Of a stretch of 64,000 bases of DNA, positions 11,427 to 63,250 are shown one piece after another. The notes beneath the pieces are model-generated. The model was not told the origin of the DNA and made no database searches. It worked only from the letters and a program-made list of their open reading frames with translations. Source of the stretch: an uncultured Chloroflexia bacterium (lineage in GTDB: Bacteria; Chloroflexota; Limnocylindria; Limnocylindrales; CSP1-4). Within the stretch, counting starts at the first letter, position 1, and each line of letters begins with the position of its first letter. Location: the NCBI GenBank assembly GCA_963763775.1, contig CAVXPZ010000004.1, positions 656,467 through 720,466 of the forward strand. Reading direction: 5' to 3'. The translations under genes were made by a program, and so were the position numbers.

Positions 11427-12806
11427 TCAACCGGGTGCGGCGGCGGGTGGCGGCGCGGATGCGACGGGCGGCGCGGCCTGGCGCAACGCCTCCGTGGCCG
11501 GCGGCCGCCCGCGGCGCGCGCCGAGCAACTCGGTGACGATGAAGGCCACCACCACCGCGACGATGATGAGCGGCGCCAGGGCCAGCCCGGCCTGGGTCAC
11601 GACCATCGCGAGGATCACCGCCGAGAGCGGCAGGCGAAGCATCGAGACCGTCATCGCGCCCATCCCGATCGCGATCATCACCGTCTCGGACAGCCCGAGC
11701 AGGTTCGCCGCGAGCAGACCGCCGACGAGCCCCAGGAACATCGCCGGGAACGTGGGGCCGCCGCGGAAACTCCCCAGCGAGACACTCCAGGCGAGACCCT
11801 TGAAGACCAGCAGCGCGGCGAGCGTCGCGACCGACAGGGTCGGCCCGAGCTGGACGACCTGCCCCATGGCGTCCTGGCCGGAGAACAGCACGGACTCGGC
11901 CGGCTGTCCGGTGACCTGGGCGAAGGCGATCGCGAGGACCGCGACCACGAGACCCGCGACCGGGATGAGCAGGAGCGGCCGTTTCATGACCACGTCCTCG
12001 GCCTTCCAGGCGAGCTCGAGGATGACCCGGACGAAGATGGCGCACAGGACACCGAGCACGATCGCCAGCACGAACTCGCTGATGCCCAGGTCGGGCGGCG
12101 CCGGCAGCCCGAGCGGTCCCAGCGCGTACGCGGACGTACTGAGCCCGCTGAGGTTGCCCATGCCGATGAAGACCACGGACCCGATCCCGGCGGCGATCAG
12201 CCCGGGGAGCAGCACCAGGGGCAGGGTCGGCCCGCCCAGGCCGGCCGCCTCGATGATGATCACCGCGCCGATGACCGGGTTGCCGAAGATCGTGGAGATC
12301 GCCGCGAAACTCCCCGCGGCGGCCATGACCAGCTTCACCTGGTCGGGTGCGCCCTTCCGGACGAGGTCGACCGTGAGGAGCGCGAGTCCCCCGCCGAGCG
12401 CGATCAGGGGCGCCTCGGGGCCGAGGACCACGCCCAGGCCGATGCCCGCGACGGCCGCGAGCAGGACACCGGGCAGCATCGCCGGGAGCGTCGGCGGTCC
12501 GGCCGAGAGGCCGGCCGCCGGTCGATGCCCGCCGTGCCCGGGCATCCGGACGATGGCGTACGCGATCGGGATGCCGGCGAGGCCGAGGATGGGTAGCGGC
12601 CACCACCCCGGTGTGTCCGCGAACCCGATCGCGGCCGGAAGGTCGACGTAGACCCAGTGCTGCATCCGCACGGTCAGCTCGAGGAAGGCCCAGCCGACCA
12701 GGGACACGACGATCCCGACGATCGCCGCAAGGATGAGGACGGCGATGTAGCCGCGGCTCCGGATGAGGGCGCCGGGGTCGATCGGATGGTCGGCGGCAGC
12801 GGTCAC
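11427..12806 (-). CDS. Voltage-gated chloride channel (ClC) family protein, divergent
   Basis: Multi-TM; GVVLGPEAP and FRGGPTFP motifs; GTG start after AAGGAG. Confidence 0.8.
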   Translation of the reverse strand: MTAAADHPIDPGALIRSRGYIAVLILAAIVGIVVSLVGWAFLELTVRMQHWVYVDLPAAIGFADTPGWWPLPILGLAGIPIAYAIVRMPGHGGHRPAAGLSAGPPTLPAMLPGVLLAAVAGIGLGVVLGPEAPLIALGGGLALLTVDLVRKGAPDQVKLVMAAAGSFAAISTIFGNPVIGAVIIIEAAGLGGPTLPLVLLPGLIAAGIGSVVFIGMGNLSGLSTSAYALGPLGLPAPPDLGISEFVLAIVLGVLCAIFVRVILELAWKAEDVVMKRPLLLIPVAGLVVAVLAIAFAQVTGQPAESVLFSGQDAMGQVVQLGPTLSVATLAALLVFKGLAWSVSLGSFRGGPTFPAMFLGLVGGLLAANLLGLSETVMIAIGMGAMTVSMLRLPLSAVILAMVVTQAGLALAPLIIVAVVVAFIVTELLGARRGRPPATEALRQAAPPVASAPPPAAAPG

Positions 12807-12953
12807 GCGGTCTCCTTCGGGCGGGCACCGAATGCTACTAGACGGCACTGCACCGTCGACGTCCGGGACGACGTCCCAGCAGGGACGCTAGAATGCCGCG
12901 GCGTCCCGCGGGCGGGTCGCACTCCGCTCTGACACCAGCACCTTGGGAGACCC

Positions 12954-14009
12954 ATGCGCAAGCTCGCCTTCATCGTGATCGCCGCCCTCGCCGCGGTGAT
13001 CGTCGCCGCGTGCGGCAGCAGCACGAGCAACCTGACCGGCAAGGATTGGCACCTGACCGCGATCACCGAGAAGGTGCCGGCGTACCAGGGCGTCGTGCCA
13101 GCGGAGAACCAGGGCAAGTACACGATCACGTTCAACACGGATGAGACGTACAACGGCAAGGCCGACTGCAACGTCTTCGCCGGGACGTACAAGACGACCG
13201 GCTCGGGAGGCCTGACGATCAGCGCCGGACCGTCGACGCTGGCCTTCTGCCCGGACGGTTCGTACTCGGACCTCTTCATCCATGCCCTCACCCAGGCCGA
13301 GAGCTACGCCGTCGCGAACGACCAGCTGACGATCACCCTCAAGGACGGCGGGATGCTGGTGTTCGTGGTCGGGACGCCTGGCGCCTCCGCGAGTGCCGAG
13401 GCGGTCGTGACGGCCTCTCCGACGCCGACGGCCTCCCCCACTCCGACGCCGACGCCCACGCCGACGCCGACACCCACCGCGTCCCCGACACCAACGCCCA
13501 CGCCGACGCCCACCGCGTCCCCGACCGCGACGCCGAAGCCGAGTGGCAGCGCCAAGCCGACGGCCACGCCGGCGCCTACGCCCACACCCACCCCGAAGCC
13601 CACGCCGGCCCCGACGCCCAAGCCGACCCCGGCCCCGACGCCGGCTCCGACCCCGTCGCCCGGAGCGGGCCTGGTCGGCCCGACGTGGCGGTTGAGCAGC
13701 ATCACCGAGCGAAACCCGGCCTTCCAGGGCGTCATCCCCGAGGCCGATCGCGACAAGTACACGATCTCGTTCGCGGCGGCCGGCACGTTCAGCGCCCGCG
13801 CCGACTGCAACACGGTCAACGGCACGTGGACGGCCACCGCCTCGGGCGGGCTGACCCTCACGCTCGGACCGTCGACGCTCGTGATCTGCGGTGAGGGCTC
13901 GTTCTCGGACCTCTACATCCTCGGTCTGAGCAACGCGGCGAGCTACACCGTCGCGGGGACGACGCTGACGATCACGCTCCACGACCAGGGCACGCTCGTC
14001 TACCAGTAG
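12954..14009 (+). CDS. META domain lipoprotein, two META domains joined by a Pro/Thr linker
   Basis: Lipobox VAAC; KADCNVFAG...STLAFC and RADCNTVNG...STLVIC. Confidence 0.85.
13410..13660 (+). repeat. Coding low-complexity (PT/PK/PA)n repeat
   Basis: Repeated ACGCCG/ACGCCC hexamers encoding TPTPTPTP...KPTPAPTP. Confidence 0.85.
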
Positions 14010-14045: not shown

Positions 14046-15269
14046 TCAGCCCTGCTGGAGGTAGATCTTTCCGCTCGCCTGGTCGACTTTGATGGGGAGC
14101 TCGGTCAACGGCGTGTCCGTCGGCCCGCCGACCACCGCGGCGTGGTGTCCCGGGTCGAAGGCGGCGCCGTGGCACGGGCACAGCAGCAGGCCGGAGGCCC
14201 GGTCGTAGCGAACGGTGCACCCGGCGTGCGTGCAGACGGTGTCGTACGCCGCGACCGAGCCGTCCGGCAGTCGGACGATCACGGCGGGGTCGCCGGTCGA
14301 CTGGACGTGGAACCGTCGCGCCTGACCCACGGGGACCTGATCGAGCGTGCCGAGCAACGTACCGGTCACACCGGCGGCGGGGGCGGACGACGGCGCTGCG
14401 GACCCTCCTTGGGCCCCCGACACTGCCTGGGCCGACGGGGCGTCCGTCGCGCCGCCGGCTGGGGCCGAGCCCGGGTTCCCCTGCGCGGCCGTGGCGTCCG
14501 GGAAGGTGCCGGCGCCCTGGTCTGCCGCGGCGACGACCGGCGCCGACCGTGACAGGAATCGTCCGAACGCCGCCAGGCCGATGCTGGCGAAGGCGAGGAT
14601 CCCGAGCTGCAGCGCCGTCCGACGTCCGGGGTCGGCCGGGTCCTCCCAGCGGGCGGCACCGGCCCAGGCCGAACGCGAGGCCGACGCCGCCTCGCGTCGA
14701 GCGAGCCACGACTCGATCGTCAGCACGCCACCGGAACCGGCCGCGGCCAGCGTGATCCACCCGAGCGCGTACGGGAGGTCCGGCCCGAGGTAGTACGGCC
14801 GCGTCGTCCACGATGCGGTCAGGAAGAACAGGATCGAGAGGCCGGCGCCGGCGATCGCGCTCCAGCGGTAGAGCAACCCGAGGACGGCCCCGAGGCCGAC
14901 GGCGATCTCGAGGAGTGAGATCCCCAGCCCGGTCAGGACCGGGAACGGTTGGGCGAAGATCGTCACGAGCGGCGCGAGCGGCGAGACCCGGACGAATTCC
15001 TGGAGCTGCATGGCGATCGACCCTGGACCGTCCGACCGAAGGAACGCCGGGTCGAGCAGCTTGTCCAGACCGGCGTACACGAACATCGCGCCCAGGAAGA
15101 AGCGGAGGGGCAGCAGCGCCGCGGCCGGGACGGATCCGCGGAGGGTCTCCGGCAGGCCGGGCCCCTCGTCGGCCTCGTCAGCCGTCCCGGGAGGTCGGCG
15201 TGGCTGGGCGAACGGGTCGAATGCCGCCCCGTGCGATCGGCGGGCGGAGCGGGAACGTCGTGAGGACAC
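14046..15269 (-). CDS. DoxX/TQO DoxD-like membrane domain fused to Rieske [2Fe-2S] domain
   Basis: LLPLRFFLGAMFVYAGLDKL, EIAVGLG, YYLGPDLPY; internal GRRTALQ; CTHAGC...CPCHG. Confidence 0.85.
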   Translation of the reverse strand: MSSRRSRSARRSHGAAFDPFAQPRRPPGTADEADEGPGLPETLRGSVPAAALLPLRFFLGAMFVYAGLDKLLDPAFLRSDGPGSIAMQLQEFVRVSPLAPLVTIFAQPFPVLTGLGISLLEIAVGLGAVLGLLYRWSAIAGAGLSILFFLTASWTTRPYYLGPDLPYALGWITLAAAGSGGVLTIESWLARREAASASRSAWAGAARWEDPADPGRRTALQLGILAFASIGLAAFGRFLSRSAPVVAAADQGAGTFPDATAAQGNPGSAPAGGATDAPSAQAVSGAQGGSAAPSSAPAAGVTGTLLGTLDQVPVGQARRFHVQSTGDPAVIVRLPDGSVAAYDTVCTHAGCTVRYDRASGLLLCPCHGAAFDPGHHAAVVGGPTDTPLTELPIKVDQASGKIYLQQG

Positions 15270-15459
15270 GGGCCATCCTTGCGGTCATCGAGAGCGAGCG
15301 GTCAGGGCGCGAGTCTGTCTGCCCGGCGGTTATGTTCGGGCGCACGGTTGGCCAAGATTCCGAAACCTTTGTGAAGTCTCATCTCCGGCACCATGCGGGG
15401 GTCGCCACCGCCCCTCAGACTGTGTCCATCCGCCGATCCGCCCGGAACGAGGTGATCCC

Positions 15460-15849
15460 ATGCTGGCCGATTCGATGATGGTGACGACGGTCGCGGTGAC
15501 CGATCTCGAACGGGCGAAGGCCTTCTTCGCCGATCGACTCGGCCTGCCGGTGCTCGACGAGCAACCGTTCGCGATCCGGTTCGGTGCCGGGCGCGGGACC
15601 CAGATCTCGGTCAGGCGCGGCCAGCCCAATGTCGGACAGACCGTCGGCCATTTCGAGGTCGACGACATCGAGACCGTCGTGCGCGACCTCACGTCGCGCG
15701 GCGTCCCGTTCCAGGAGTACGAGACCCCCAAGACCGTCGACTTCATCGCGCAGGTCGGTCCCGCCCGCGGCGCCTGGTTCACCGATCCCGACGGCAACGT
15801 CTTCGGCGTTCGGGAGGGCCCGGTGCCCTCCGCCGCGGCCGCCGGCTAG
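15460..15849 (+). CDS. VOC/glyoxalase family protein
   Basis: VTDLERAKAFF...LGL, FEVDDIE, AWFTDPDGN. Confidence 0.88.
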   Translation: MLADSMMVTTVAVTDLERAKAFFADRLGLPVLDEQPFAIRFGAGRGTQISVRRGQPNVGQTVGHFEVDDIETVVRDLTSRGVPFQEYETPKTVDFIAQVGPARGAWFTDPDGNVFGVREGPVPSAAAAG

Positions 15850-15852
15850 CGT

Positions 15853-15878
15853 GAGGCCCTCCCGGTCGGGAGGGCCTC
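15853..15878. terminator. GC-rich hairpin between convergent genes
   Basis: GAGGCCCTCCCG-GT-CGGGAGGGCCTC; no U-tract. Confidence 0.65.
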
Positions 15879-15901
15879 GACGGACGGAGCCGGGTCGTTC
15901 C

Positions 15902-18673
15902 TCAGGCTGCCGCGGGGGCCGCGGTTCCCGAGGAGGTGACAGCCGCGGCCTCGTCGACCGTGCTGATCTTGAGCAGCTTCCTGGCCTCTTCGACCACGAT
16001 GATCGCCAGGGCGACGAGGAGGCAGATGGCCCACTGGTCGGGCGACAGGCTCACCGTGCCCAGGAGCCGCTGAAGGACCCCGAGTTCGGTGGCCAGGATG
16101 ATCGTCAGGACCGACAGGCCCGTCCCGATCAGGAGCGGGCGGTTCCCGAGGACGGATCCGCTGAACAGCGACTCGTCCACGTCCGCCGTCTCCAGCGAGG
16201 AGAAGAGTCGGAACAGGGCGAAGGTGGTCATCCCCATCGTGCGGGCGATCGTGTCGTCGTAGTTGGCACTTCCCCAGGCGAGCACGCCGAGCGTGCCGGC
16301 GGCCATCACCAACCCGCAGAACACGAGCCAGGTCAGGAGACGGCGGGGCATGATCTTCTGCGACTTGGGCCGCGGCGGGACCTCCATGAGTCCCTCGCGG
16401 GGCTTCCCGTAGCCGAGACCGAGGCCCTGGAAGACGTTGACCGTGAAGTTGAGCCACAACGTCTGCAGCGGCAGGAACGGGATGCCGCCGACGATGTCGA
16501 AGATGGCCGACCCGAGGAACGTCGCGATGTATCCGAAGAGCCCCGCCATCTGGAACCGGATGAAGCGCAGCATGTTGTCGTAGACGGAGCGCCCGAGGCC
16601 GACCGCCTTCACGATCGTCGCGTAGTTGTCGTCGGTGAGGATCATCACCGCGGCCTGCTTGCTGACCTCCGTTCCGGTGATCCCCATCGCGATGCCGATG
16701 TCGGCCTTCTTGAGCGCCGGGGCGTCGTTCACGCCGTCGCCGGTCATCCCGACGACATGGCCCTTCTTCTTGAGGATGTCCACCAGGTGGACCTTGTCCT
16801 CGGGCGAGACGCGGGCGATGACGCCGATGCCGTCGATCTCGCGCATCGCCTCGTCATCGCTCATCGCCCGGAACTCGGCGCCGGTGATGGCCCGGCCCTC
16901 GATGCCGAGCTGGTGCGCGATCGCCCCGGCGGTGACCGCATGGTCGCCGGTGATCATCCGGACCTGGATGCCGGCAGCGTGAGCACGCGCGATCGCATCC
17001 TTCGCCGCGGGTCGCGGCGGGTCGACGATGCCGATCATGGCGAGGAGCGTGAGTCCGTCGATGGCGGGCAGCAGGTCGGCGTTGGGATCGAACGTCGCCG
17101 GGTCGAAGTCCTTCTGGCCGGTCGCCATGACCCGCAGGCCCTGGGTGCCGAGCCGCTCGTTCTCGGCGAGGAAGCCATCGCGGATCTGATCGAGCGGCAC
17201 GGCTTTGCCGTCCGGGCCGTGGACGTCCTTCGCCCGCGCGAGGAGCTGGTCCGGTGCCCCCTTGATGTACGCGCGGATGACGTCCTTGCCATCCGCGTCC
17301 TTCATGGCGTGGAATGTCGCCATCATCTTGTAAGCGGCGTCGAACGGCAGGGTCGCCACCCGCGGGTACTGCTCCCGGGTCAGCGTGGGATCGACGCCGC
17401 CCTTGGCCGCCAGGACGACCAACGCGCCTTCCGTCGGGTCGCCGACGAGCGCGCCGTCGCGGACCTCGGCGTCGGCGCACAGCGCCATCGGCAGGAGGTA
17501 GGGCTCGAGCGGGAGGTCGGGCTGGCCGCCGGTGTGGGTGATCTGCCCGGTCGTCTGGTATCCGTCGCCGCTGATCGCGTACCGCCGCCCGACGATGGCC
17601 ATCTGGACCGCCGTCATCTGGTTGAGCGTGAGGGTCCCGGTCTTGTCCGAGTTGAGCGCAGAGGTCGACCCCAGCGTCTCGACCGAGCGCAGACGCTTCA
17701 TGATCGCCCCCGCCTCCGCGAGCGCCTGCGAACCCTTCGACAGGATGGCGGTGACGACCGCCGGGAGGGCCGTCGGGATCGCGGCCACGGCGAAGGCGAC
17801 GGCGCTCAGGAACAGCTCCTGGAGCTGGACGCCACGGTACAGGCCGAGCCCGACCGACACCGCGAGCGCAACGCCCGCGATGATCAGGATCTGGTTCGTC
17901 AGCGCGTCGAGCTGCTTGGTCAGCGGGGTCTTCTCGATCGTCGTCGACTGGAGCATCCCGCTGATATGGCCGACCTCGGTGGCCATGCCGGTGGTGACCA
18001 CAAGGACCGTTCCGGCACCCCTCGTGACCTGGCAGTTCATGAACGCCATGTCCACCCGGTCGCCGAGCGCGGCGTCGGCGGCGACCACGTCGACCTGCTT
18101 GGGCGTGGGGACGCTCTCTCCGGTGAGGGCGGACTCGTCGATCTCGAGGGTCGCCGCGGTCAGGATCCGCGCGTCCGCTGGGACGAGGTCGCCCGCCTCG
18201 ATGTTGACGATGTCACCCGGGACGAGCTGGTCCATCGGGATCTCGACGAGGTCGCCGTCGCGCCGCACCTTCGCCTTGACGACCATCATGCCCTGCAGGG
18301 CGGAGGCACTCGCTTCCGCCTTGCCCTCCTGGTTCATCGCCATCCAGGCGTTGAACACCGTCAAGAGGATCAGGAAGACGCCGGTGTAGAACTGGCCCGG
18401 CAGGAAGAGACAGACGGTGCCGGCGATCAGCAGCACGATCTGCATCGGGTCGGCGTACTGCCGCGTGAACATCTGGAGCGGCGACGCCTTCTTGGCCTCG
18501 GCGAACGTGTTCTTGCCATAGGTCGCGCGCCGGGCGTCCGCCTCGGCCGAGGTCAGGCCGCTGGCAGGGTCGACCTTGAGGCGGCTGGCGGCATCCTCCG
18601 GGGACAGCGCGTACCACGCCACATCGGGCGCGGCCTGGACGGCGCCGGTGGACTGACCGGTGGCGGCGGTCAT
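15902..18673 (-). CDS. P-type ATPase, P2-like architecture with non-canonical transport site
   Basis: LTGES, DKTGTLT, KGAPD, MITGDH, TGDGVNDAPALK; M4 IPTALP. Confidence 0.92.
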   Translation of the reverse strand: MTAATGQSTGAVQAAPDVAWYALSPEDAASRLKVDPASGLTSAEADARRATYGKNTFAEAKKASPLQMFTRQYADPMQIVLLIAGTVCLFLPGQFYTGVFLILLTVFNAWMAMNQEGKAEASASALQGMMVVKAKVRRDGDLVEIPMDQLVPGDIVNIEAGDLVPADARILTAATLEIDESALTGESVPTPKQVDVVAADAALGDRVDMAFMNCQVTRGAGTVLVVTTGMATEVGHISGMLQSTTIEKTPLTKQLDALTNQILIIAGVALAVSVGLGLYRGVQLQELFLSAVAFAVAAIPTALPAVVTAILSKGSQALAEAGAIMKRLRSVETLGSTSALNSDKTGTLTLNQMTAVQMAIVGRRYAISGDGYQTTGQITHTGGQPDLPLEPYLLPMALCADAEVRDGALVGDPTEGALVVLAAKGGVDPTLTREQYPRVATLPFDAAYKMMATFHAMKDADGKDVIRAYIKGAPDQLLARAKDVHGPDGKAVPLDQIRDGFLAENERLGTQGLRVMATGQKDFDPATFDPNADLLPAIDGLTLLAMIGIVDPPRPAAKDAIARAHAAGIQVRMITGDHAVTAGAIAHQLGIEGRAITGAEFRAMSDDEAMREIDGIGVIARVSPEDKVHLVDILKKKGHVVGMTGDGVNDAPALKKADIGIAMGITGTEVSKQAAVMILTDDNYATIVKAVGLGRSVYDNMLRFIRFQMAGLFGYIATFLGSAIFDIVGGIPFLPLQTLWLNFTVNVFQGLGLGYGKPREGLMEVPPRPKSQKIMPRRLLTWLVFCGLVMAAGTLGVLAWGSANYDDTIARTMGMTTFALFRLFSSLETADVDESLFSGSVLGNRPLLIGTGLSVLTIILATELGVLQRLLGTVSLSPDQWAICLLVALAIIVVEEARKLLKISTVDEAAAVTSSGTAAPAAA

Positions 18674-19647
18674 GCCTTCTTCCTCTTCTTCGACTTCTTC
18701 GCGGCCTTCTCGGCGAGCTCGGCCTCGATCGGATCCGGCGCGGCGCCGGGAGGCGCCTGGCCTTCGAGCTCGACCTTCGCCGCCCCCAGCGCCTCCTTGG
18801 CCTCCTTGGAGACCTTCGGGAACTTCGGGTCGATCTGGATCAGGGTGTGGGCCAGGACGGCTGCCGCCGCAACGCGAGCGAACGGCTTGTCATCCGCCGG
18901 GATCACGTACCACGGCGCCCACGGCGTGCTCGTATTCGACAGCACCTCGCTGAAGGCCTTCTGGTAGTCGTCCCAGAACATCCGCTCCTTGGCGTCGTTC
19001 GCGCTGAACTTCCAGTTCCGGTCCGCCTCGTCGATCCGGGTCAGGAACCGCCGGCGCTGCTCTTCCTTGCTCACGTTCAGGAACATCTTCGCGAACCGGT
19101 AGCCCTGGTCGGCGAGGTAGTGCTCCCAGTCGTTGATCTCCCGGAACCGGCGCTGCCAGATGCCGCGATCCTTGAGCTTGGGCGGGATCTTCTGCCCGGC
19201 CAGGATCTGCGGGTGCACGCGGACGACGAGGACCTCCTCGTAGTAGGAGCGGTTGAAGATCCCGATGTTGCCGCGCTCGGGGAGCCGCTTCTGGTACCGC
19301 CACAGGTAGTCGTGGTCGAGGTCCTCGCTCGAGGGGATCTTGAAGCTGCTGACCTGGACGCCCTGCGGGTTCACGCCGCTCATGACGTGCCGGATCGTGC
19401 CGTCCTTGCCCGCGGCGTCCATCGCCTGGAGCACCACCAGCACGGCGAAGTCGTCCTGCGCGGCCAGTCGCATCTGGTACTCCGCGAGCATCTCCGTGCC
19501 CTGGGCGAGGATGGCCTTCGCCTCGGCCTTCGTCTGCTGTCGCGTGCCGGACGGGTCGAAGTCCTTGGGCAGCCGGACGCGACGGCCAGGCTCGACGCGG
19601 AATGGCTTGATGAAGTCGGCGATCCGCTTGGGTCCGATGGCAGGCAT
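18670..19647 (-). CDS. ppk2: Polyphosphate kinase 2 family (class III-like) polyP:nucleotide phosphotransferase
   Basis: QAMDAAGKDGTI Walker A, FNRSYYEEVL, lid RIDEADRNWKFS, APWYVIPAD. Confidence 0.9.
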   Translation of the reverse strand: MPAIGPKRIADFIKPFRVEPGRRVRLPKDFDPSGTRQQTKAEAKAILAQGTEMLAEYQMRLAAQDDFAVLVVLQAMDAAGKDGTIRHVMSGVNPQGVQVSSFKIPSSEDLDHDYLWRYQKRLPERGNIGIFNRSYYEEVLVVRVHPQILAGQKIPPKLKDRGIWQRRFREINDWEHYLADQGYRFAKMFLNVSKEEQRRRFLTRIDEADRNWKFSANDAKERMFWDDYQKAFSEVLSNTSTPWAPWYVIPADDKPFARVAAAAVLAHTLIQIDPKFPKVSKEAKEALGAAKVELEGQAPPGAAPDPIEAELAEKAAKKSKKRKKA

Positions 19648-19713
19648 GGGGCAGGTCCTTTCGAACGACCCGCGAGCGCCGGATGTCGGCAGCGCTCCGG
19701 ACGACAAAGGATA

Positions 19714-19730
19714 TCGTCCGCACGGGGCGG
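19714..19730 (-). promoter_or_regulatory. Palindromic box upstream of ppk2
   Basis: Minus strand reads CCGCCC-CGTGC-GGACGA-T, same spacer as the box at 19786. Confidence 0.45.
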
Positions 19731-19785
19731 CCGGCGCGGCAGATGCCGTTCGTCACCATCCGGGCCAGCTCGAACCACGGCCGCT

Positions 19786-19806
19786 TCATCCCGTGCGGGT
19801 GATGCG
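19786..19806 (+). promoter_or_regulatory. Palindromic box upstream of DUF6325 gene
   Basis: TCATCC-CGTGC-GGGTGA-TGCG. Confidence 0.55.
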
Positions 19807-19908
19807 CCGCGACGTCGGGCGTGGTGGACTTGTCCGTGGATGTCGCTCTGAGCGGCTCGCTCGGCGAGCCGGGCCCGCGGCACCAATCACCGAACGGATG
19901 GAGACGCC

Positions 19909-20364
19909 ATGACCGACCGATCCATCGACGAGCTGGGGCCCGTCGACTTCCTGATCGTCGAGTTCCCCGTGGGATCACAGAACTTCACCGGCGAGGGCGC
20001 GGACGAACTCCTGCGGCTCCACGACGCCGGGATCATCCGGATCATGGACATCCTCATCCTCCAGAAGGACGAGGACGGCTCGGTCGAGGCCATGGAGCTG
20101 TCCGACCTTGACGAGCTGGGCGAACTCTCGCGTCTCGAGGCGGAGCTCGCGCAGACGCTCGCCGAAGACGATGTCGAGCACCTGGCGGCCGCCATGGACC
20201 CGGGCAGCATCGCCGGCGTCCTCGTGTACGAGAACCTGTGGGCCGCCCCGTTCGCCTCGGCCATGCGCCGGGCCGGCGGGCAGCTCATCGCCAACGGCCG
20301 GATCCCGATCCAGGCCCTCATCGCCGCCGTCGAGGCGGACGAGCTCGAAGCAGCAGGAGGCTGA
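19909..20364 (+). CDS. DUF6325-like acidic protein
   Basis: LGPVDFLIVEFP...GIIRIMDILILQKDEDG...VLVYENLWAAPFASAMRRAGGQLIANGRIP. Confidence 0.8.
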   Translation: MTDRSIDELGPVDFLIVEFPVGSQNFTGEGADELLRLHDAGIIRIMDILILQKDEDGSVEAMELSDLDELGELSRLEAELAQTLAEDDVEHLAAAMDPGSIAGVLVYENLWAAPFASAMRRAGGQLIANGRIPIQALIAAVEADELEAAGG

Positions 20365-20365
20365 C

Positions 20366-20572
20366 ATGCCACTCGGACCAGGTCGCCGCGGCGTCGGCGT
20401 CGTCGGCGCCCCCGTCGCCAAGACCGCCGCCGTCGTCGCGGTCGCCAAGCCCGGCCCGTCACCGGTCGCCAAGGCCGCCGTCGTCGGCGCGGCCGTGTCG
20501 CCAGGGCCGTCACCCGTCGCCAAGGCGGCCGTCGTCGGCGCCGTGGTCACCCCGGGTCGCCGGCGCTTCTAG
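20366..20572 (+). CDS. 68-aa basic microprotein with three 17-aa repeats
   Basis: Strong RBS AGGAGG; PVAK(T/A)AxVxAxxxPG repeated three times; GC3-rich codons. Confidence 0.7.
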   Translation: MPLGPGRRGVGVVGAPVAKTAAVVAVAKPGPSPVAKAAVVGAAVSPGPSPVAKAAVVGAVVTPGRRRF

Positions 20573-20628: not shown

Positions 20629-20646
20629 ATCGGTCGGTCGACCGAT
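20629..20646. promoter_or_regulatory. Perfect palindrome, likely LuxR-type operator
   Basis: ATCGGTCG-GT-CGACCGAT upstream of TACACT (-10) and leaderless ATG at 20681. Confidence 0.5.
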
Positions 20647-20680
20647 GCCACGAAGACGCGCTTGCGTACACTCGCGGCAT

Positions 20681-23558
20681 ATGGATCCCACGACGCTCCT
20701 CCAGAGTCCCCTGCTGATCGGTCGCGACCAGCTGCTCGTGCTCGCCGACGACCGGCTCGAGAAGGCGGCCGCCGGGCACGGGCAGGTGCTGCTCCTGGCC
20801 GGGGAGGCGGGCATCGGCAAGACCCGCCTGCTCCACGCGCTCCTGCGCAAGGCCGGGGCCGCGGGATTCATCATCAGCAAGGGCGACCTCGCCCCGCAGG
20901 ACTCGCTCGTGCCGTTGGCGTCGATCCTGGACCACGCCCGGACGATGCGCCAGATCCCGGCCTTCGGCACGCTCGGCGACGACCTGCTGGCCCTGCGCCG
21001 GGACCGTGGCGCCGATTCGCTCGCGTCGCGGCGGATCCTCGTCCATGACATCGCGGGGCGGATCGTCAGCGCCGTGGACCGACCGACGTTGCTGGCCTTC
21101 GAGGACCTCCAGTGGGCCGACGAGCTGACCCTCGAGGTCATCGGGGAGCTCGCCCGACTCGCCCCGGAACGACCCCTCTTCCTGATCGGGGCGTACCGGC
21201 CGGATGAGCTCCGGGCCGACGCGATGCATCGCGAGTGGCGGGCGCGGCTGCTGAGCCAGCGTTTCGGCGAAGAGGCCGTCCTCGCACCATTGACGTACGA
21301 CGAGACGGCCCTGGCCACGACCCTCATCCTGGGCACGGGACTGCCCGCGTCGCGCGACGTCGTCAGTGCCATCTTCGAACGGTCCGATGGCGTGCCCCTC
21401 TATATCGAGGAACTGCTGGCCGCGCTCCGCGGTGCCACGGCGGACGGCCGGGCGATCCGGGACGCCAAGGTCCCGACCTCGATCGAGGACGCGATCATGG
21501 CGCGGGTCGGACGTCTGTCGGCCGACGCCCAGGTCGTGGGTCGAGCGGCCGCCGTGATCGGCCGGTGCTTCGTGCCGAGCGTCCTGGCCGGCATGCTGGA
21601 TCGTCCCGTCTCCGACCTCGACGAGCCGCTCGACGAGCTCACGCGGAACGCCTTCATCTTCACGTACGGCGAAGGCATCCTCGACTTCCGCCACCAGCTC
21701 ATCCGCGATGCGCTGTACCGCAGCGTCCCGTCGAGCGAGCTGCGTCGCCTCCATGCTCGCGCCGGGGAGTTCGGGGCGCAGCTCGAGGGCGCGTCCGAGA
21801 TCCATGCCTCCGCGCACTTCGAGCGGGCCGGTCTTCGCCCGCAGGCGTACCGTGCGGCCCTCGCGGGCGCCGACGCGGCGAGCGCCGTCTCGAGCCGGCA
21901 TGAGGCGTTCGAGCTGTACGCCCGCGCTGTGGCCAACATCCCGGACGAGCTTTCCGCCCTCGATCGAGCCGCCTTGTACGACGCGTACTGCACCTCCGCG
22001 TTCGCCGTCGACGACGTCGAGATCGGGGTGACCTCGGCAAAGGAGGCCCGGCGCTACTACCTCGAGGCCGGGCGGCCGATCGAGGCCGCGATGGCGCTGG
22101 TGAGCCTGGCCGGGATGGGCCGCCGCGATGTCTGGCCACACGAGGAGCGCGTGCGACTCCTCGCCGAGGCGGAACACGACCTCGAGGACCTGCCCGAATC
22201 TCCCGAACGCATGGCCCTCCTGTCCGACATCCGCCTGTTCCAGGGGATCATCGAGCTCGAATTCGACCGCCCTCGAACCCGCCGCGGTGCTCTTCGGGGA
22301 AGCGCGCCGACTCTGGCTCGCGGCCGGCGAGACGGACACGACCGACTTCGAGTGGACCGCCGCCCAGGTCGACGTGCTGTCGGGGCGCATCGATGCCGGG
22401 CTCGAGACGATGCTGCGGCTGGCCCGGGAGTCCCGCGACGCGCGGCTCGAGAGCAGCGGCGTGACCGCGTACCGGACCGCGGCCGCGATCGCCGTGCGGG
22501 TCATGGCGTACCCAGCCGCGGAGATCGGCCTGCGCGAGGGACTTCGCTATGCCGACGAGATCGAGCAGTCCTACTGCCGACACGTGATGGCCGCGACGTC
22601 GGCCCACGTCGCGTGGGCGTCCGGCCGATGGGACGAGGCAGTCCTGGCGGCTGAGCTCGAGCTTGTGGAGCGGGGCAGCCGGCGCGGGACGCTCGGGTCG
22701 CGCGACGCGCTCGGGTTCGTGGCGTTCGGCCGCGGTGAGGTCGACCGTGCCCGCGACCTGCTCGACGGGTCGCTCGCCGTCGCGCGCGACAGCGCCGAGG
22801 TGGAACTCGTGATGCCCGCCATGTGGGGCCTCGCCGAGACGGCGCTGATCGCCGGCGAGCCCGGCGTCGCGATCGAGCACGTCGAGGCAGCGGATGCCCT
22901 CGCCACGCGCACGGGCGAGCGGGCACTGCTCGTCCCGTTCGTCGTGACCGGCGTCCGGGCCTACCTCGCAGCGCGCCGCCCGGCGGACGCGGAACGTTGG
23001 GTCCAGAGCGTCGCCACGCACCTGACCGGCTGGGAGCGGGCCCGCCCCGCGCTCGACCATGCGGACGGGCTTCTCCGCCTGACGACGGGGTCGACGGTCT
23101 CGGCGCGCACCAGCCTCGAGGCGGCGGTCAGCGGCTGGGACGCGCTCGGGCGCACCTGGGAGAGCACCAACGCCCGGCTCGACCTCGCGTCATGCCTGAT
23201 CCGCGGCAATCGCCACATGCATGCGATGCCGATCCTGACCGAGGTCCGTGCGATCGCCGAGGGCCTGCGGAGCCGCCCACTGCTCGAGCGGGTCGAGGAG
23301 TTGTCGAGCCTCGCCCGTCGACGCGGGGTCACCGAGGAGCCGTGGCACCCGCTGAGCGCCCGAGAGTTCGAGGTCGCGAGCCTCGTCGCCCAGGGCCAGA
23401 CCAATGGCGAGATCGCCGAGGTCCTCGGGCTGTCGCCGAAGACCGTCAGCGCCCACCTCGAACACATCCTGGCGAAGCTCGGCGCCCTCCGGCGGGCCGA
23501 GGTGGCGGCGTGGGTGGCAACGGTGCGGACACCCGAAGGGGTCGGCGCCGGTCGCTGA
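20681..23558 (+). CDS. AAA-ATPase/TPR/LuxR-HTH (LAL/STAND-like) transcriptional regulator, frameshift near 22268
   Basis: GEAGIGKTRL, FEDLQWAD, GVPLYIEEL, FRHQLIRDA; C-terminal LSAREFEVA...LSPKTVSAHLEHILAKLG. Confidence 0.88.
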
Positions 23559-59788: not shown

Positions 59789-61927
59789 TCACGCCTCATG
59801 CTGGCTCCGGGCCGTCGTCGCGACCACCTCCGCTGGCACAGGGCCATCGCCCAGGACCAGGAGTGCGGTCCGCCACGTCGTCGCGAACACGCCGATGAAC
59901 GGCACGACCAGGAACATCCCGGCGATCCCCGCCAGCGCCGCGCCCGCCGGGATCGCGAGCAGGATGATGGCCGGATGGATGTTGACCGCGCGGCCGTAGA
60001 CGATGGGCGCCACGAAGTTGCCCTGCACCACGTTGAAGACGATGGTGTAGACGCCCATGATCGCGGCGTCCTGCGGAGTCCCGAGGGCCAGCGTCACGAA
60101 GAACGCCAGCAGCGTGGTGAGGATGCTGCCGATGTATGGGATGAATCCGCCGAAGAAGGACAGCACCGCGAGGGGCAGCGCGAGCGGGATCCCGAGGATC
60201 GTCATGATCGCGAACTGCGTGACCGCCCCGAAGAGGGAGATCGCTCCGGTCCCGATCATGTAACCGCCCAGGACCCCGACCGCTCGACCCCCAGCAGCCT
60301 CCACCTCGCTCCGGCGCCACAGGGCGAGCCGGGACGTCGCGAACGACCAGAACCTCGGGCCGTCACGCATGAAGTCGAACATCAGCAGGACGCCGATGAC
60401 GCACACGACCGCCAGCCCGACGGATCCCGCCACGACCGCCCGGGCAGCCTGCCCGAGGAAGTCGGAAGAGCTGGACACGAGCGGCTGCAGCCAGGCCAGG
60501 ACCTGGGGGTTCGAGGCGACCACCTGCCCGGCGCCGGCGCTGGCGGCCTGGACGATCGGGCTCATCTGGGTCGCCAGGCTCACGACGGTGAGGACGACGA
60601 CGACCGTGGTGATGACGATCGACGCGACGGTCACCGTTCCGGCCGCGCTCGTCGGGCTCCAGCCCCTGGCCCGGAGCAGACGGTAGATCGGCAAGAGCGT
60701 GGCCGCGAGGATGATCGCGAGGGTGACCGGGATGAGGACGATCGGGACCTGGACCGCGAGAAGGACCAGCACGCCCAGGAACGCGAGCCCGATCAGGCAT
60801 CTCCAGCTCCATTGCGCGAGGCGGTCCAGCCACAAAGGCACGATCGAGTTCGACTCTCCGCCAACACCCGTCACGTCCATGCCGATGACGTCGATGAGGG
60901 AACCAGCGACGGCGTACCCGAAGGCGACGACCGGGACGGCCAGGAACAGGCCCACGAACCCGGCCATCGCCGCCCCGATCGGGAGGGCGATGAGCACCGC
61001 GGGCCGCGGCATCCGGACCGCTCCCCGGAAGACCTTCGGGGCGATGACGGAGGTCTGGAGGACATGGACCAGGATGACCCCGACGAAGATGACGCCGGCG
61101 GCGGCGAGGCCGCCTGAGGCGTAGGTCACGACGAGCAGGACGGTCATCAGCAAGAGGCCGCCGAGATACGGGATGAAGCCCGTGATGAACGCCAGGATCG
61201 AAAGGGCGAGGGCAGCGGGAACGCCCAGCGCCGACAGGAAGATGAAGACGGTCACAGCATCGATGGCCGCCTGCGTCGCGGTCCCACGAAGCCAGACCCC
61301 GACTCCGTTCAGTGCCTTGTCACCGCTCGACATGATCACTTCACGCCGGCGATCGCCCGTCGCCTGGAGCGCCCAGACCCAGGCCTTGTCGCCGTCCTGG
61401 AGGAGGAAGAAGGTCAGGATGCTCCCGAGGATCGTCACGGTCACGGCGGTCGCCAGCCAGGACGCGACACTCGCGAGCTGGCCGCCGATCCACGCCTCCG
61501 CGTTCGATCGAGCCTGGCCGAGGGCGTCGCCCAGCTGACCGCTTTGGCCGCTTGCATTCGCGTCCGCCTGGAGTCTGACCAACCCTGATTGGATCGCCTG
61601 GACGATCCCTGGAACGAGCGGTACGACCGCGACCGCGAGGAGGATGACCATCAGGCCGATCGCGAGGATCGCAAGGAGGGTCACGGCGCCCGCCGTCTTT
61701 GTTCGGGACCAGCCACGGCTCCGCAAGCGCGTCGCAACCGGCGCGAACACGACGGCGACGATCAGTGCGAAAACGATCGAGGCGACCACTGTTCCAAGGA
61801 TCACGGCAAGTCCGGCGAGGACGGCGATCAATGCGAACACGGCCAGGACGCGCCAGCCGATCGCGGCCGCATTGCTGAGCCAGGTCGGGATGAAAGGCGC
61901 AGGAGTCTTCGGTACGGTGTCGATCAT
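59789..61927 (-). CDS. AI-2E (UPF0118) family transporter, internally duplicated
   Basis: Two repeats each with P-W, RGW, FFL/FM-DG, FIPY(L/I)G, G-FL-VP. Confidence 0.85.
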   Translation of the reverse strand: MIDTVPKTPAPFIPTWLSNAAAIGWRVLAVFALIAVLAGLAVILGTVVASIVFALIVAVVFAPVATRLRSRGWSRTKTAGAVTLLAILAIGLMVILLAVAVVPLVPGIVQAIQSGLVRLQADANASGQSGQLGDALGQARSNAEAWIGGQLASVASWLATAVTVTILGSILTFFLLQDGDKAWVWALQATGDRRREVIMSSGDKALNGVGVWLRGTATQAAIDAVTVFIFLSALGVPAALALSILAFITGFIPYLGGLLLMTVLLVVTYASGGLAAAGVIFVGVILVHVLQTSVIAPKVFRGAVRMPRPAVLIALPIGAAMAGFVGLFLAVPVVAFGYAVAGSLIDVIGMDVTGVGGESNSIVPLWLDRLAQWSWRCLIGLAFLGVLVLLAVQVPIVLIPVTLAIILAATLLPIYRLLRARGWSPTSAAGTVTVASIVITTVVVVLTVVSLATQMSPIVQAASAGAGQVVASNPQVLAWLQPLVSSSSDFLGQAARAVVAGSVGLAVVCVIGVLLMFDFMRDGPRFWSFATSRLALWRRSEVEAAGGRAVGVLGGYMIGTGAISLFGAVTQFAIMTILGIPLALPLAVLSFFGGFIPYIGSILTTLLAFFVTLALGTPQDAAIMGVYTIVFNVVQGNFVAPIVYGRAVNIHPAIILLAIPAGAALAGIAGMFLVVPFIGVFATTWRTALLVLGDGPVPAEVVATTARSQHEA

Positions 61928-62048
61928 TCGCCGATGGTCCGTTTCGATCTCGCCGTCGTCGGCCCGTGGAGGATGGCCTCCGGGAAGGCAGGGATCCGCG
62001 CGCCCGTCGACATCTCGGCCTCGATCGGCTGGGTCGTTGTGGCGCCCA

Positions 62049-63179
62049 TCAGTGGGCGGCCGCCTTGAGCTCTGCGGTGGTCGGCAGCATCGACTTGCCC
62101 CGCCGGGCCAGCTTGAGCAGGATCCAGGCGAGCGGGATCGGCAGGAACCAGTAGTACAGCCGATACAGGAAGACGCCGGCCGTGATCGCGGCGGTGTATT
62201 GCTCGCCCGCGATGGCCGTGAAGGCTGAGATGAAGAGCAGTTCCGGCACCCCGGCGCCACCGGGCGAGAGCGGGATGATCGTGATGGCCATCACGAGGGC
62301 ATAGACGCCGAAGATGATGCCCGGGCTCAGGACGTCGGCTGGCACCCCGCACATCCGGAGCGCGACGATGAGGACGATCGTCCACACGAACTGGGAGGCG
62401 ACCGACGTGCCGAGCGCCACCAGACCGCGCTGGCGGATGACGACACCCAGCTGGTCGCGGAACCGATGGATCGCACCGTCGACGTCGGGTGCGCCCTTGC
62501 GCCCGAGCCGCGCCATCAGCCAGGACACCATGCGCTGTCCCGTCCGACCCAGCCAGGCGGCGATCCGTTCCGAACGGACGACGGCGATGATCAGGCCGAC
62601 GGCGACGATGAATACGACGGCGCTGATGATCGCGATCGTCCACGCCGTGCCCGCGTTGGCACTTCCGGCCAGGTCGCCGGTGATCGCGAGGGTGATGATC
62701 GCGAAGAGGGGCAGGAACAGGCGGCTCAATTCGTGGACCACGCCATACAGGGCGATGCCCGAGGTGGCCGGGATGTTCGGGATGCCCCAGCCGCGCAGGA
62801 CCACCCAGAGGACGCCCATGTTCCACGGGCCGAACGGGACGCTCGCGCCGATCCCCGAGAGGATCAGCCACGACGTGGGTCCACGGGGCACGGATAACCC
62901 GGGGATCAACGCGCAGATGACGAGACCACTGACGAGCCAACCAGCCGCGCCCAGAGCTGTGATGACCACCATCTGCTGCGCCGACAGGGCCTTGAACGCC
63001 GCGAAGACCTCGCTGTAGTTCACACCGGTCGCCGGCAGGATGATCACGAAGACGATGAAGAGGACGGCGACGATCAGGCCGGAGCGCATGAGCGCCGCAC
63101 GGCGACTCGGCGGCGCAGCGGCAGATGCCGGGTCCGTCCCCGGGGTCGCATCGGGCGCGGGCGTGTCGGGACCGCTCAT
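62049..63179 (-). CDS. Lysylphosphatidylglycerol synthase TM-domain (YbhN/flippase-like) protein
   Basis: Multi-TM; IPLSPGGAGVPE, AGVFLYRLYYWFLPIPL. Confidence 0.8.
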   Translation of the reverse strand: MSGPDTPAPDATPGTDPASAAAPPSRRAALMRSGLIVAVLFIVFVIILPATGVNYSEVFAAFKALSAQQMVVITALGAAGWLVSGLVICALIPGLSVPRGPTSWLILSGIGASVPFGPWNMGVLWVVLRGWGIPNIPATSGIALYGVVHELSRLFLPLFAIITLAITGDLAGSANAGTAWTIAIISAVVFIVAVGLIIAVVRSERIAAWLGRTGQRMVSWLMARLGRKGAPDVDGAIHRFRDQLGVVIRQRGLVALGTSVASQFVWTIVLIVALRMCGVPADVLSPGIIFGVYALVMAITIIPLSPGGAGVPELLFISAFTAIAGEQYTAAITAGVFLYRLYYWFLPIPLAWILLKLARRGKSMLPTTAELKAAAH

Positions 63180-63250
63180 CGGCTCCGCTCCGGCGTCGTC
63201 ACCGTCGCCATCTCCGCCTGCGGATCGAGATCGCTGGTCCACACGGTCAT
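63176..63250 (-). CDS. Possible 24-aa small ORF
   Basis: GAGGAG RBS, MTVWTSDLDPQAEMATVTTPERSR, stop overlaps next ATG (ATGA). Confidence 0.35.
   Translation of the reverse strand: MTVWTSDLDPQAEMATVTTPERSR

Follow-up and report, generated by a model that had tools for sequence, protein, structure and literature searches.

What does a P-type ATPase transport when every carboxylate at the ligand positions of its membrane site has gone, and which fuel does it run on? The question is raised by a gene in a 64,000-nucleotide stretch of DNA (the window) of an uncultured Chloroflexia bacterium. The window is the last 64 kb of one contig, from a genome of 3.3 Mb in four contigs, and its nearest protein relatives are labelled Candidatus Limnocylindrales or Chloroflexota. 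The gene encodes a derived P2A-like pump (Table 1) and is overlapped by a gene for a polyphosphate kinase of the PPK2 family. This partner gene is absent from an earlier interpretation made from the letters alone (the sequence-only reading), and it is the strongest clue to the role of the pump. It is proposed here, with moderate confidence, that the pump is run on reserve ATP, drawn from polyphosphate in this organism and from arginine in its relatives. In this function it would keep the membrane or ion balance, with Ca2+ and other divalent metals improbable as the ion moved.

The product is an intact, strongly conserved P-type ATPase descended from the single-site P2A Ca2+ pumps of the LMCA1/PMR1 kind. 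Its catalytic motifs had been taken to be intact and all of them were located: TGES at residue 184, DKTGT at 343, KGAP at 471, TGD at 575 and TGDGVND at 644 (GDGVND at 645). The Asp of DKTGT, together with TGES, TGD and GDGVND, places the protein in the P-type ATPase superfamily. The Pfam families E1-E2_ATPase (156 bits), Cation_ATPase_N/C and Hydrolase all score above their cut-offs. The best solved relative in a phmmer search of the PDB is LMCA1 (Listeria monocytogenes Ca2+-ATPase 1; 6zhf, E 2e-139, residues 37-901), followed by human SPCA1 and SERCA. An AlphaFold model built from a 30-row alignment (mean pLDDT 80.8) has SPCA1, LMCA1 and SERCA as its top Foldseek matches (8iwt, E 5e-58), with a TM-score of up to 0.85 against SERCA E2(TG), 5zmv. 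The protein thus has the ten-helix P2 fold, and Ca2+ pumps are its nearest neighbours by phmmer, Foldseek and trees, as expected of P2A. Its membrane domain is conserved as much as the remainder of the protein.

No named subfamily cut-off of NCBIfam is reached. The highest scores come from the PMR1-type model TIGR01522 (548.2 against a cut-off of 798.3) and the SERCA-type model TIGR01116 (497.9 against 703.4), and a further Ca2+ equivalog gives 399 against 507. Lower still are the models for P3A H+-ATPases (TIGR01647, 377.1 against 615.5), P5 ATPases (TIGR01657, 202.9 against 618.25), KdpB (133 against 528) and P4 phospholipid flippases (TIGR01652, 58.5 against 431.25). Public entries for the relatives are either unnamed or carry the automatic label of Ca2+-transporting ATPase. 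Since every named cation-pump equivalog cut-off is missed, this label is not earned, and the suspicion that a standard cation-ATPase annotation would mislead was well founded.

The membrane site itself has been rewritten. Ligand equivalences were obtained by reading the printed alignment of the pump with LMCA1 against the published LMCA1 ligands, which are given in the ligand description of PMC11468904 as Glu292, Asn716 and Asp720 for site II, and Arg795 and Ala691 for the former site I. In the pump, Glu292 is replaced by Thr301, Asp720 by Asn746 and Ala691 by Tyr715, with Asn716 and Arg795 kept as Asn742 and Arg822. From the P2A site-II set (a Glu in transmembrane helix M4, an Asn and an Asp in M6), Asn742 alone remains. 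The alignment bears out the substitutions claimed for the IPTALP motif of M4 and for the M5, M6 and M8 stretches. The Arg of M8 had been listed in the sequence-only reading as part of the rewritten site; it is no novelty, as the residue is present in LMCA1, which pumps Ca2+, and is no argument for an anion. What stands out is the simultaneous loss of all carboxylates at ligand positions, not one lost ligand.

A compensating Asp or Glu in the transmembrane core had been named in the sequence-only reading as a finding that would speak against it. In the sequence and the modelled secondary structure no such carboxylate was found in the helix cores; every Asp or Glu lies at or near a helix end, and Arg822 is the sole charged residue in any helix core. 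The deepest acid is Glu863 at the outer end of M9, a residue both conserved in the query lineage and specific to it. In the model, M4 is broken at residues 299-301, like that of other P-type pumps. The M6 helix is drawn unbroken from 735 to 755, in agreement with the loss of the M6 Pro. Acidic residues have also been lost beyond the site itself. Position 97, where M2 ends on the outer side, is Asp/Glu in canonical pumps and Thr in all members of the clade described below. Within the M6-M7 loop, Gly756 replaces the canonical Glu/Asp nearly clade-wide (some subfamilies have Ser, three early-branching tips Asp and one Glu). The query lineage further has Arg759 in place of Glu and has lost two Glu at the start of M5.

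These residues are under strong constraint. Among 181 non-identical close homologues, Thr301 is found in all 181, Asn742 in 177 (the other four being gaps), Arg822 in 175 and Leu712 in 172. Position 746 is Asn in 167, with 7 Thr, 4 Asp, 1 Pro and 2 gaps. Such near-invariance excludes both sequencing error and decay, and the first of these had already been dismissed in the sequence-only reading on the strength of a paralogue fragment at the end of the contig, which does share the M6 and M8 residues of the query pump. The canonical state was taken from 114 full-length 50%-cluster representatives. Here the M4 Glu is found in 113, the M5 Asn in 102, the M6 Thr in 90, the M6 Asp in 94 and the M6 Pro in 89; at position 822 there are 107 sequences with Gln or Glu and 2 with Arg.

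When 1.84 billion representatives were searched exhaustively, about 95,000 relatives emerged, and the best 150 were examined. Within these the M4 Glu is absent in just a small group, and DKTGT is retained in all except 3. A tree of 141 representatives groups ten tips in one clade nested among single-site pumps of the IPEGLP type; the M4 Glu is missing from nine of the ten. The IPEGLP-type pumps have the M5 Asn, an Ala at the Glu771 position and the M6 Asn..Asp, which is the layout of LMCA1 and PMR1. In a second tree, of 148 sequences, the clade has an SH-like support of 0.87. Leu712 and Gln749 are nearly constant within the clade. The M4 residue may be Thr, Glu or Val, position 746 may be Asn, Asp, Gln, Leu, Ile, Gly, Thr, Val or Glu, and position 822 may be Arg, His, Asn, Ala, Val, Ser or others. 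Glu-type subfamilies are nested among Thr-type ones in the 148-sequence tree. The query lineage and the Thr/Gln/Asn type are carboxylate-free at the ligand positions, Glu-type subfamilies hold a single protonatable Glu, and some sisters combine Thr in M4 with Asp746 and Arg or His at 822. Three clade members, all 50%-cluster representatives, lack DKTGT and read DESGC (P0148), GASGL (P0203) and D-AGC (P0180); judged by these motifs, they have probably lost catalytic activity. No orthologue of the Glu-type representative P0124 above 60% identity was found in 401 Chloroflexota genomes (400 sampled and the window's own), in a search that scored two candidates per genome, so its absences are unreliable.

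The gene neighbourhood supplies what the site does not. The gene upstream of the pump, termed PPK2a, scores above the cut-offs of Pfam PF03976 (210.4 bits against 22.3) and NCBIfam TIGR03709 (355.7 against 247.2). It lies below that of the ADP-polyphosphate phosphotransferase equivalog NF042973 (364 against 450). The TGA of PPK2a overlaps the ATG of the pump gene, which implies translational coupling. A scan of 15400-20400 for promoters and terminators found none. The PPK2 tail, at 18670-18730 on the minus strand, is rich in Lys, with about 8 Lys/Arg among the last 14 residues; a tail of this composition could bind polyphosphate or an acidic membrane surface. A complex prediction of the P and N domains of the pump (330-702) with PPK2 (25-320), both supplied as alignments, scored 0.00 and carries no weight either way.

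The pairing recurs widely. In a survey of 80 related loci from species-representative genomes, a PPK2 gene adjoins the pump gene on the same strand at 69. PPK2a lies just upstream at 27 of these (and at 2 more with split hits). A different PPK2 class, PPK2b (TIGR03707, 349.8 against 301.8), lies just downstream at 32 (with 2 further split hits) and upstream at 3, and the remaining 3 hold both classes, including the order ATPase-PPK2b-PPK2a-ATPase. The order pump-PPK2a-pump is found in one genome (G245), and a genome of another family of the phylum (G361) has a 59%-identical pump with PPK2b just downstream. Spacing was calculated for 38 loci with PPK2a upstream, 30 from genomes and 8 from metagenomes. 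Of the genome loci, 20 show a 4-nt overlap; all eight metagenome loci have a gap of 2-7 nt, and the spacing lies between -4 and +7 nt in 28 of the 38.

Other genes of polyphosphate and ion handling are found near the pair. A gene for a CHAD protein lies within 5 kb at 16 of the 80 genome loci, as do SulP anion transporter genes at 23 and a gene for an RCK-gated K+ channel at 7 (the last two counted from the locus table). CHAD is a polyphosphate-binding domain, as set out in the account of its function in PMC6537752. Three metagenome loci read PPK1-PPK2a-ATPase followed by CHAD (CYTH-CHAD in one of them, L148). In the window's own genome, a cluster of CHAD, DUF1269, SulP and RCK K+ channel genes stands on another contig (C3:712781-720003). 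The pump-PPK2 island appears to have been split in this genome, since the same genes flank the pair elsewhere. The genome also contains a second, different P2-like pump (C1:1225130-1233238) with an acid-rich site (IPEEPP in M4, Glu and Asp in M6), which is divergent to and 1.3 kb from PPK1, with CHAD next, and makes a second pump-polyphosphate neighbourhood. The assembly has it in two reading frames, suggestive of a frameshift or of a fault in assembly.

A second source of ATP takes the place of PPK2 in many relatives. Metagenome contigs, many of them short, were scanned with a Glu-type representative and yielded 80 loci with pumps 56-72% identical to the query. The commonest neighbours include enzymes of the arginine deiminase (ADI) pathway, namely carbamate kinase (NF009008, 474 bits against 361), catabolic ornithine carbamoyltransferase (NF003286, 520 against 515) and arginine deiminase (NF002381, 525 against 414). 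Two kinds of basic-amino-acid antiporter, of the TIGR00905 and YfcC-type families, are also among them, at scores below the cut-offs. These genes flank or enclose the pump gene in many orders, such as kinase-pump-antiporter, a divergent arc operon, and deiminase-antiporter-pump. Arginine-pathway enzymes are present at 23 of the 80 metagenome loci, enzymes or an antiporter at 35, PPK genes at 11, and either context at 44. By M4 type, either context accompanies 24 of 30 Glu-type pumps (arginine in every case) and 20 of 35 Thr-type pumps (11 arginine, 11 PPK, 2 of them both). Among the 11 genome loci without PPK2, three of Limnocylindrales type carry ADI genes instead, as does genome G285, and the pumps are of the Thr/Asp/His type. 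The two contexts are interleaved across the 148-sequence tree, and two loci hold both.

As a control, 25 loci of other P2-type pumps from this phylum were surveyed with 5-6 kb to either side of the pump, and PPK2, PPK1, CHAD, SulP, arginine enzymes and antiporters were absent from all of them. The other neighbour families (HtrA-like protease, DAGK-type kinase, VIT1, MIP, ABC exporter, PAP2 and DUF7144) revealed no third recurrent ATP source.

A module for spending reserve ATP would account for these arrangements. Both PPK2 and carbamate kinase make ATP from ADP without respiration and the pump yields ADP, so their joint encoding, often with overlapping codons, fits such a module. The pump would form its consumer half. 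ADP released by the pump would be re-phosphorylated by PPK2 at the expense of polyphosphate; in relatives this step would fall to the second PPK2 class, to PPK1, or to the carbamate kinase of the ADI pathway. The reserve ATP would be spent on primary transport of a small ion, sustaining membrane potential and ion/pH balance when respiration cannot. We infer from gene order that this upkeep under energy limitation is the purpose of the pump. For the query a monovalent ion is favoured, and both a cation (H+, Na+ or K+) and an anion were considered. In the query lineage it would be held by backbone carbonyls with Thr301, Asn742, Asn746 and Gln749, and Arg822 would serve as a built-in counter-charge, as proposed for LMCA1.

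A related division of labour is known from lactic acid bacteria, in which ATP from the arginine deiminase pathway feeds the proton-extruding F1Fo ATPase for pH and membrane homeostasis. The parallel, an analogy, would lie in substrate-level ATP being spent on an ion-pumping ATPase. The two differ in that the F1Fo consumer is encoded outside the operon, whereas the present arrangement combines the genes of a dedicated P-type pump and of the kinase that makes ATP. The use of polyphosphate as an energy buffer is described in the parts of PMC12995831 and bioRxiv 10.1101/2024.08.28.610084 that deal with it. Full-text searches of the literature found no paper linking P-type ATPases to PPK2, CHAD or arc operons, or on polyphosphate in this bacterial group.

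Several observations weigh against the reserve-ATP proposal. A shared gene neighbourhood is evidence of co-expression, not of energy coupling, and any ATPase would gain from ATP. Kin share gene order, so that the 69 of 80 and related counts are not independent and overstate the number of separate events. The Val-type relatives, 13 of the 80 metagenome loci, have neither PPK nor ADI neighbours. The cation version is weakened by the chemistry of the site, as one free of carboxylates and with an uncompensated Arg is a poor cation site; we know of no characterised P2 or P3 cation pump that lacks carboxylates altogether. The hypervariable ligand positions could indicate that the substrate binds elsewhere than in the canonical site, and Glu863 might matter. 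On the side of the proposal, the linkage is made convincing by the variety of gene orders, by the presence of two PPK2 classes and by the involvement of two ATP-making pathways that are unrelated to each other; for PPK2, the independent part is the varied arrangements and the second family. In a separate observation, Val-type and some Glu-type relatives (L188, L189, L142 and L146) have a string of DUF1269, PAP2 (lipid phosphate phosphatase) and pump genes, not beside PPK or arginine genes.

The sequence-only reading had called the protein a pump of a non-cation substrate in a separate subfamily. The derived clade in the tree and the departure from a standard cation pump uphold the second half of that statement; the proposed anion (chloride, phosphate or bicarbonate) or lipid is possible, yet unsupported, and is judged unlikely. 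Such a substrate would suit a site with no ligand-position carboxylate left and one uncompensated buried Arg, with acids gone from the outer M2 end and the M6-M7 loop, Arg759 gained, and M6 deprived of its Pro and modelled as an unbroken helix. For an anion, there are also the SulP genes within 5 kb at 23 of the 80 genome loci and the ClC gene some 3 kb away in the window. One possible mechanism would have Arg822 and the amide side chains capture an anion from the outside in E2P and let it go on the inside, as Na,K-ATPase does with K+ and P4 flippases do with lipid, so building a membrane potential. The buried Arg, however, is common to the Ca2+ pump LMCA1, and the SulP linkage is limited to one group of close kin and recurs at 1 of 80 metagenome loci. 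No neighbour gene consistently indicates lipid handling or anion pumping, and the flippase family score of 58 bits against a 431-bit cut-off opposes a lipid. Sisters at 57-75% identity in the same PPK and ADI contexts carry Glu301 or Asp746, which argues against one common anionic or lipid substrate for the clade. To our knowledge, no gene has yet been assigned to an anion-pumping P-type ATPase. A bolder form confines the anion to the query lineage, with its Thr301, Asn742, Asn746, Gln749 and Arg822 and no carboxylate. This lineage would then be the first gene-identified anion pump of the superfamily, taking up a small anion such as chloride beside Arg822 in the E2P-to-E1 half-cycle and generating a potential from polyphosphate-derived ATP. 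The clade would switch ions in the manner of microbial rhodopsins, in which one or two site swaps separate proton, sodium and chloride transport. An anion beside Arg822 would make chemical sense; this form is considered distinctly unlikely.

The arginine context suggests in its turn an organic or nitrogen cation (ornithine, arginine, polyamine or ammonium), tied to arginine catabolism and to polyphosphate counter-ions and bound through aromatic and amide groups. Glu-type relatives have a basic amino acid/polyamine antiporter gene as a direct neighbour more often than any other gene (22 of 30), and aromatics have been gained near the site relative to canonical pumps (Phe57, Tyr73, Phe294, Phe733 and Phe743). 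The M4 motif resembles the Glu-less PPALP of the polyamine-pumping P5B ATPases. Antiporters are nonetheless ordinary members of arc operons, so adjacency may just reflect operon membership. The query neighbourhood has no arginine genes, its genome yielded only an anabolic-looking ornithine carbamoyltransferase with the queries used, and the P5 family score is 203 bits against 618. To spend one ATP on moving the product of a pathway that earns one ATP per arginine makes little sense, and the reading is regarded as quite improbable. An ordinary exporter of Ca2+ or another divalent metal, with water, backbone carbonyls and Asn side chains replacing the carboxylates, would explain why Ca2+ pumps are the best matches in sequence and fold and why Asn742 and the Arg are kept as in LMCA1; polyphosphate also binds Ca2+ and Mg2+. 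The mycobacterial pump CtpE takes up Ca2+ without the M6 Asp according to its treatment in PMC10654040 and PMC5615198, so that cations stay compatible with the loss of a single ligand. Here two of the three LMCA1 site-II ligands are lost together with the M5 Asn, at positions that canonical pumps hold near-invariant (Glu in 113 and Asp in 94 of 114), and the site would have a net charge of +1 before any metal binds. With the Ca2+ equivalog cut-offs also missed widely (548/798, 498/703 and 399/507), such an exporter is very unlikely. Lastly, the protein might not transport at all and act as a membrane-anchored sensor, regulator or drain of ATP or polyphosphate, its ligand positions having drifted freely. 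The breadth of variation between subfamilies (N/D/Q/L/I/G/T/V/E at 746, T/E/V in M4) and the outright loss of DKTGT in P0148 and P0203 point this way. Drift would not keep Thr301 in 181 of 181 homologues, however, nor the site residues near-invariant within each subfamily, and ten helices and every catalytic motif are retained over 923 residues with a membrane domain conserved like the remainder. This reading is given the least credence of all, as highly improbable.

Comparison with known pumps leaves the query pump close to the P2A group in build and apart from it in its site. With LMCA1 (P2A; 6zhf, 6zhh and 9euq) it shares the ten-helix P2 fold, the single-site architecture, the M6 Asn (Asn716/Asn742) and the M8 Arg that occupies SERCA site I (Arg795/Arg822). 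It differs in the loss of two of three side-chain Ca2+ ligands (Glu292 to Thr301, Asp720 to Asn746) and of the M6 Pro, in Leu712 for the M5 Asn, and in the PPK2 operon that contains its gene. The Ala691 that makes room for the Arg in LMCA1 has become Tyr/Phe715. SPCA1/PMR1 and SERCA (P2A Ca2+/Mn2+ pumps) provide the top Foldseek matches and the best NCBIfam models; unlike SERCA, the pump replaces the equivalents of Glu309, Asn768 and Asp800, and it scores far under the curated cut-offs. The P3A H+-ATPases (AHA2, Pma1) have a Glu-less M4 of the IPIAMP type, a single M6 Asp as proton carrier and a nearby Arg counter-charge, and energise the membrane electrogenically. Sister subfamilies with Thr in M4, Asp746 and Arg or His at 822 copy this layout, and the M4 motif of one representative, P0128, is VPMAMP, whereas the tree puts the clade inside P2A and the pump has Asn at the Asp position (167 of 181 close homologues). 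In AHA2, the change of the M6 Asp to Asn reportedly abolishes proton pumping.

A Glu-less M4 is found in other P-type pumps as well, namely P4 flippases (PISL), P5B (PPALP) and KdpB (IPTT), whose substrates are either carried during the dephosphorylation half of the cycle or are something other than a simple metal ion. The pump is set apart from them by family scores far under cut-off, and no Cdc50-like or KdpA-like partner gene was seen. CtpE, of the proposed P6 ATPases (family 23), is a ten-helix protein of about 790 residues, long functionally uncharacterised, that keeps VPEGL, has Ile for the M6 Asp and imports Ca2+, as described in section 14 of PMC10654040 and the corresponding account in PMC5615198. 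In a comparison by these described features only, Glu-type relatives resemble CtpE in having the M4 Glu with Ile or Leu at 746. The query differs in IPTAL, Asn746, its 923 residues and Cation_ATPase_N, and lies outside P6 as there described.

Table 1. Coordinates of the pump gene, its partner and the associated motifs in the window
Feature	Position	Strand	Remarks
P-type ATPase gene (derived P2A-like pump)	15902..18673	-	923 aa; open reading frame without internal stop
PPK2 gene (PPK2a)	18670..19647	-	Likely start ATG 19647 (ortholog alignment consensus and sequence); longest possible start TTG 19707
ATGA overlap, 4 nt	18670..18673	-	PPK2 stop TGA overlaps ATPase start ATG
DKTGT phosphorylation motif	17633..17647	-	Asp343
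M4 motif IPTALP	17762..17779	-	Residues 299-304; Thr301 at the SERCA Glu309 / LMCA1 Glu292 position (gating/ligand Glu)
M5 stretch	16526..16555	-	Residues 707-716; Leu712 for Asn, Tyr715 at the SERCA Glu771 position
M6 stretch	16427..16456	-	Residues 740-749; Asn742 kept, Val745 for Thr, Asn746 for near-universal Asp, Gln749 for Pro
M8 stretch	16202..16222	-	Residues 818-824, including Arg822; aligns with LMCA1 Arg795
Pump site residues			Thr301, Leu712, Asn742, Asn746, Arg822
Paralogous pump, C-terminal 221 aa	63333..63998	-	62% identical; cut off by contig end

The paralogue fragment belongs, by its M5-M8 residues, to the 'TCYNVNQR' site type; its M4 lies beyond the contig end, and the 'T' is taken from full-length members. 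Full-length members of this type elsewhere have PPK2a directly upstream (loci L038, L041, L044, L073 and L074). Downstream of the fragment (59789-63242, minus strand) are genes for a membrane protein with weak resemblance to the transmembrane (flippase) region of lysyl-phosphatidylglycerol synthase (30.1 bits against a cut-off of 33.4) and an 823-residue protein with two AI-2E transporter domains.

Further genes surround the PPK2-pump operon in the window. A DUF6325 gene (19909-20364, plus strand) is divergent from it, and DUF6325 and DUF1269 recur near the pump in other genomes. Two long open reading frames overlap in different frames at 20645-23558 on the plus strand, one for an AAA_16 nucleoside triphosphatase (669 aa) and one for TPR repeats with a LuxR-type helix-turn-helix (476 aa); together they resemble a single STAND regulator of the MalT/LuxR type, divided by a frameshift or a programmed overlap. 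A LuxR/STAND regulator was considered as a conserved partner and rejected. Such genes stand near 9 of the 80 metagenome loci but are dissimilar to those at 20645-23558, and they stand near 1 of the 80 genome loci. On the other side of the operon are genes for a DoxX/DoxD-Rieske fusion protein (14046-15269, minus strand), a META-domain lipoprotein whose two META repeats are joined by a long linker rich in Pro and Thr (12954-14009, plus strand) and a ClC-family channel (11427-12848, minus strand), the last about 3 kb from the pump gene.

The substrate of a P-type pump is usually read from a few ligand residues. The present clade breaks this rule, as the positions vary between subfamilies and all acids are gone in the query lineage, and each subfamily still conserves its own set of site residues tightly, though annotation says calcium pump. 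Were the ion an anion, the old question of whether anion-pumping P-type ATPases exist would be settled; were it a proton or an alkali cation, a new way to build such a site would be at hand. The pump is a single 923-residue chain with an obvious partner enzyme and is easy to test. Its encoding together with makers of ATP that need no respiration offers a testable answer to how slow-growing bacteria of soils and wetlands energise their membranes from reserves.

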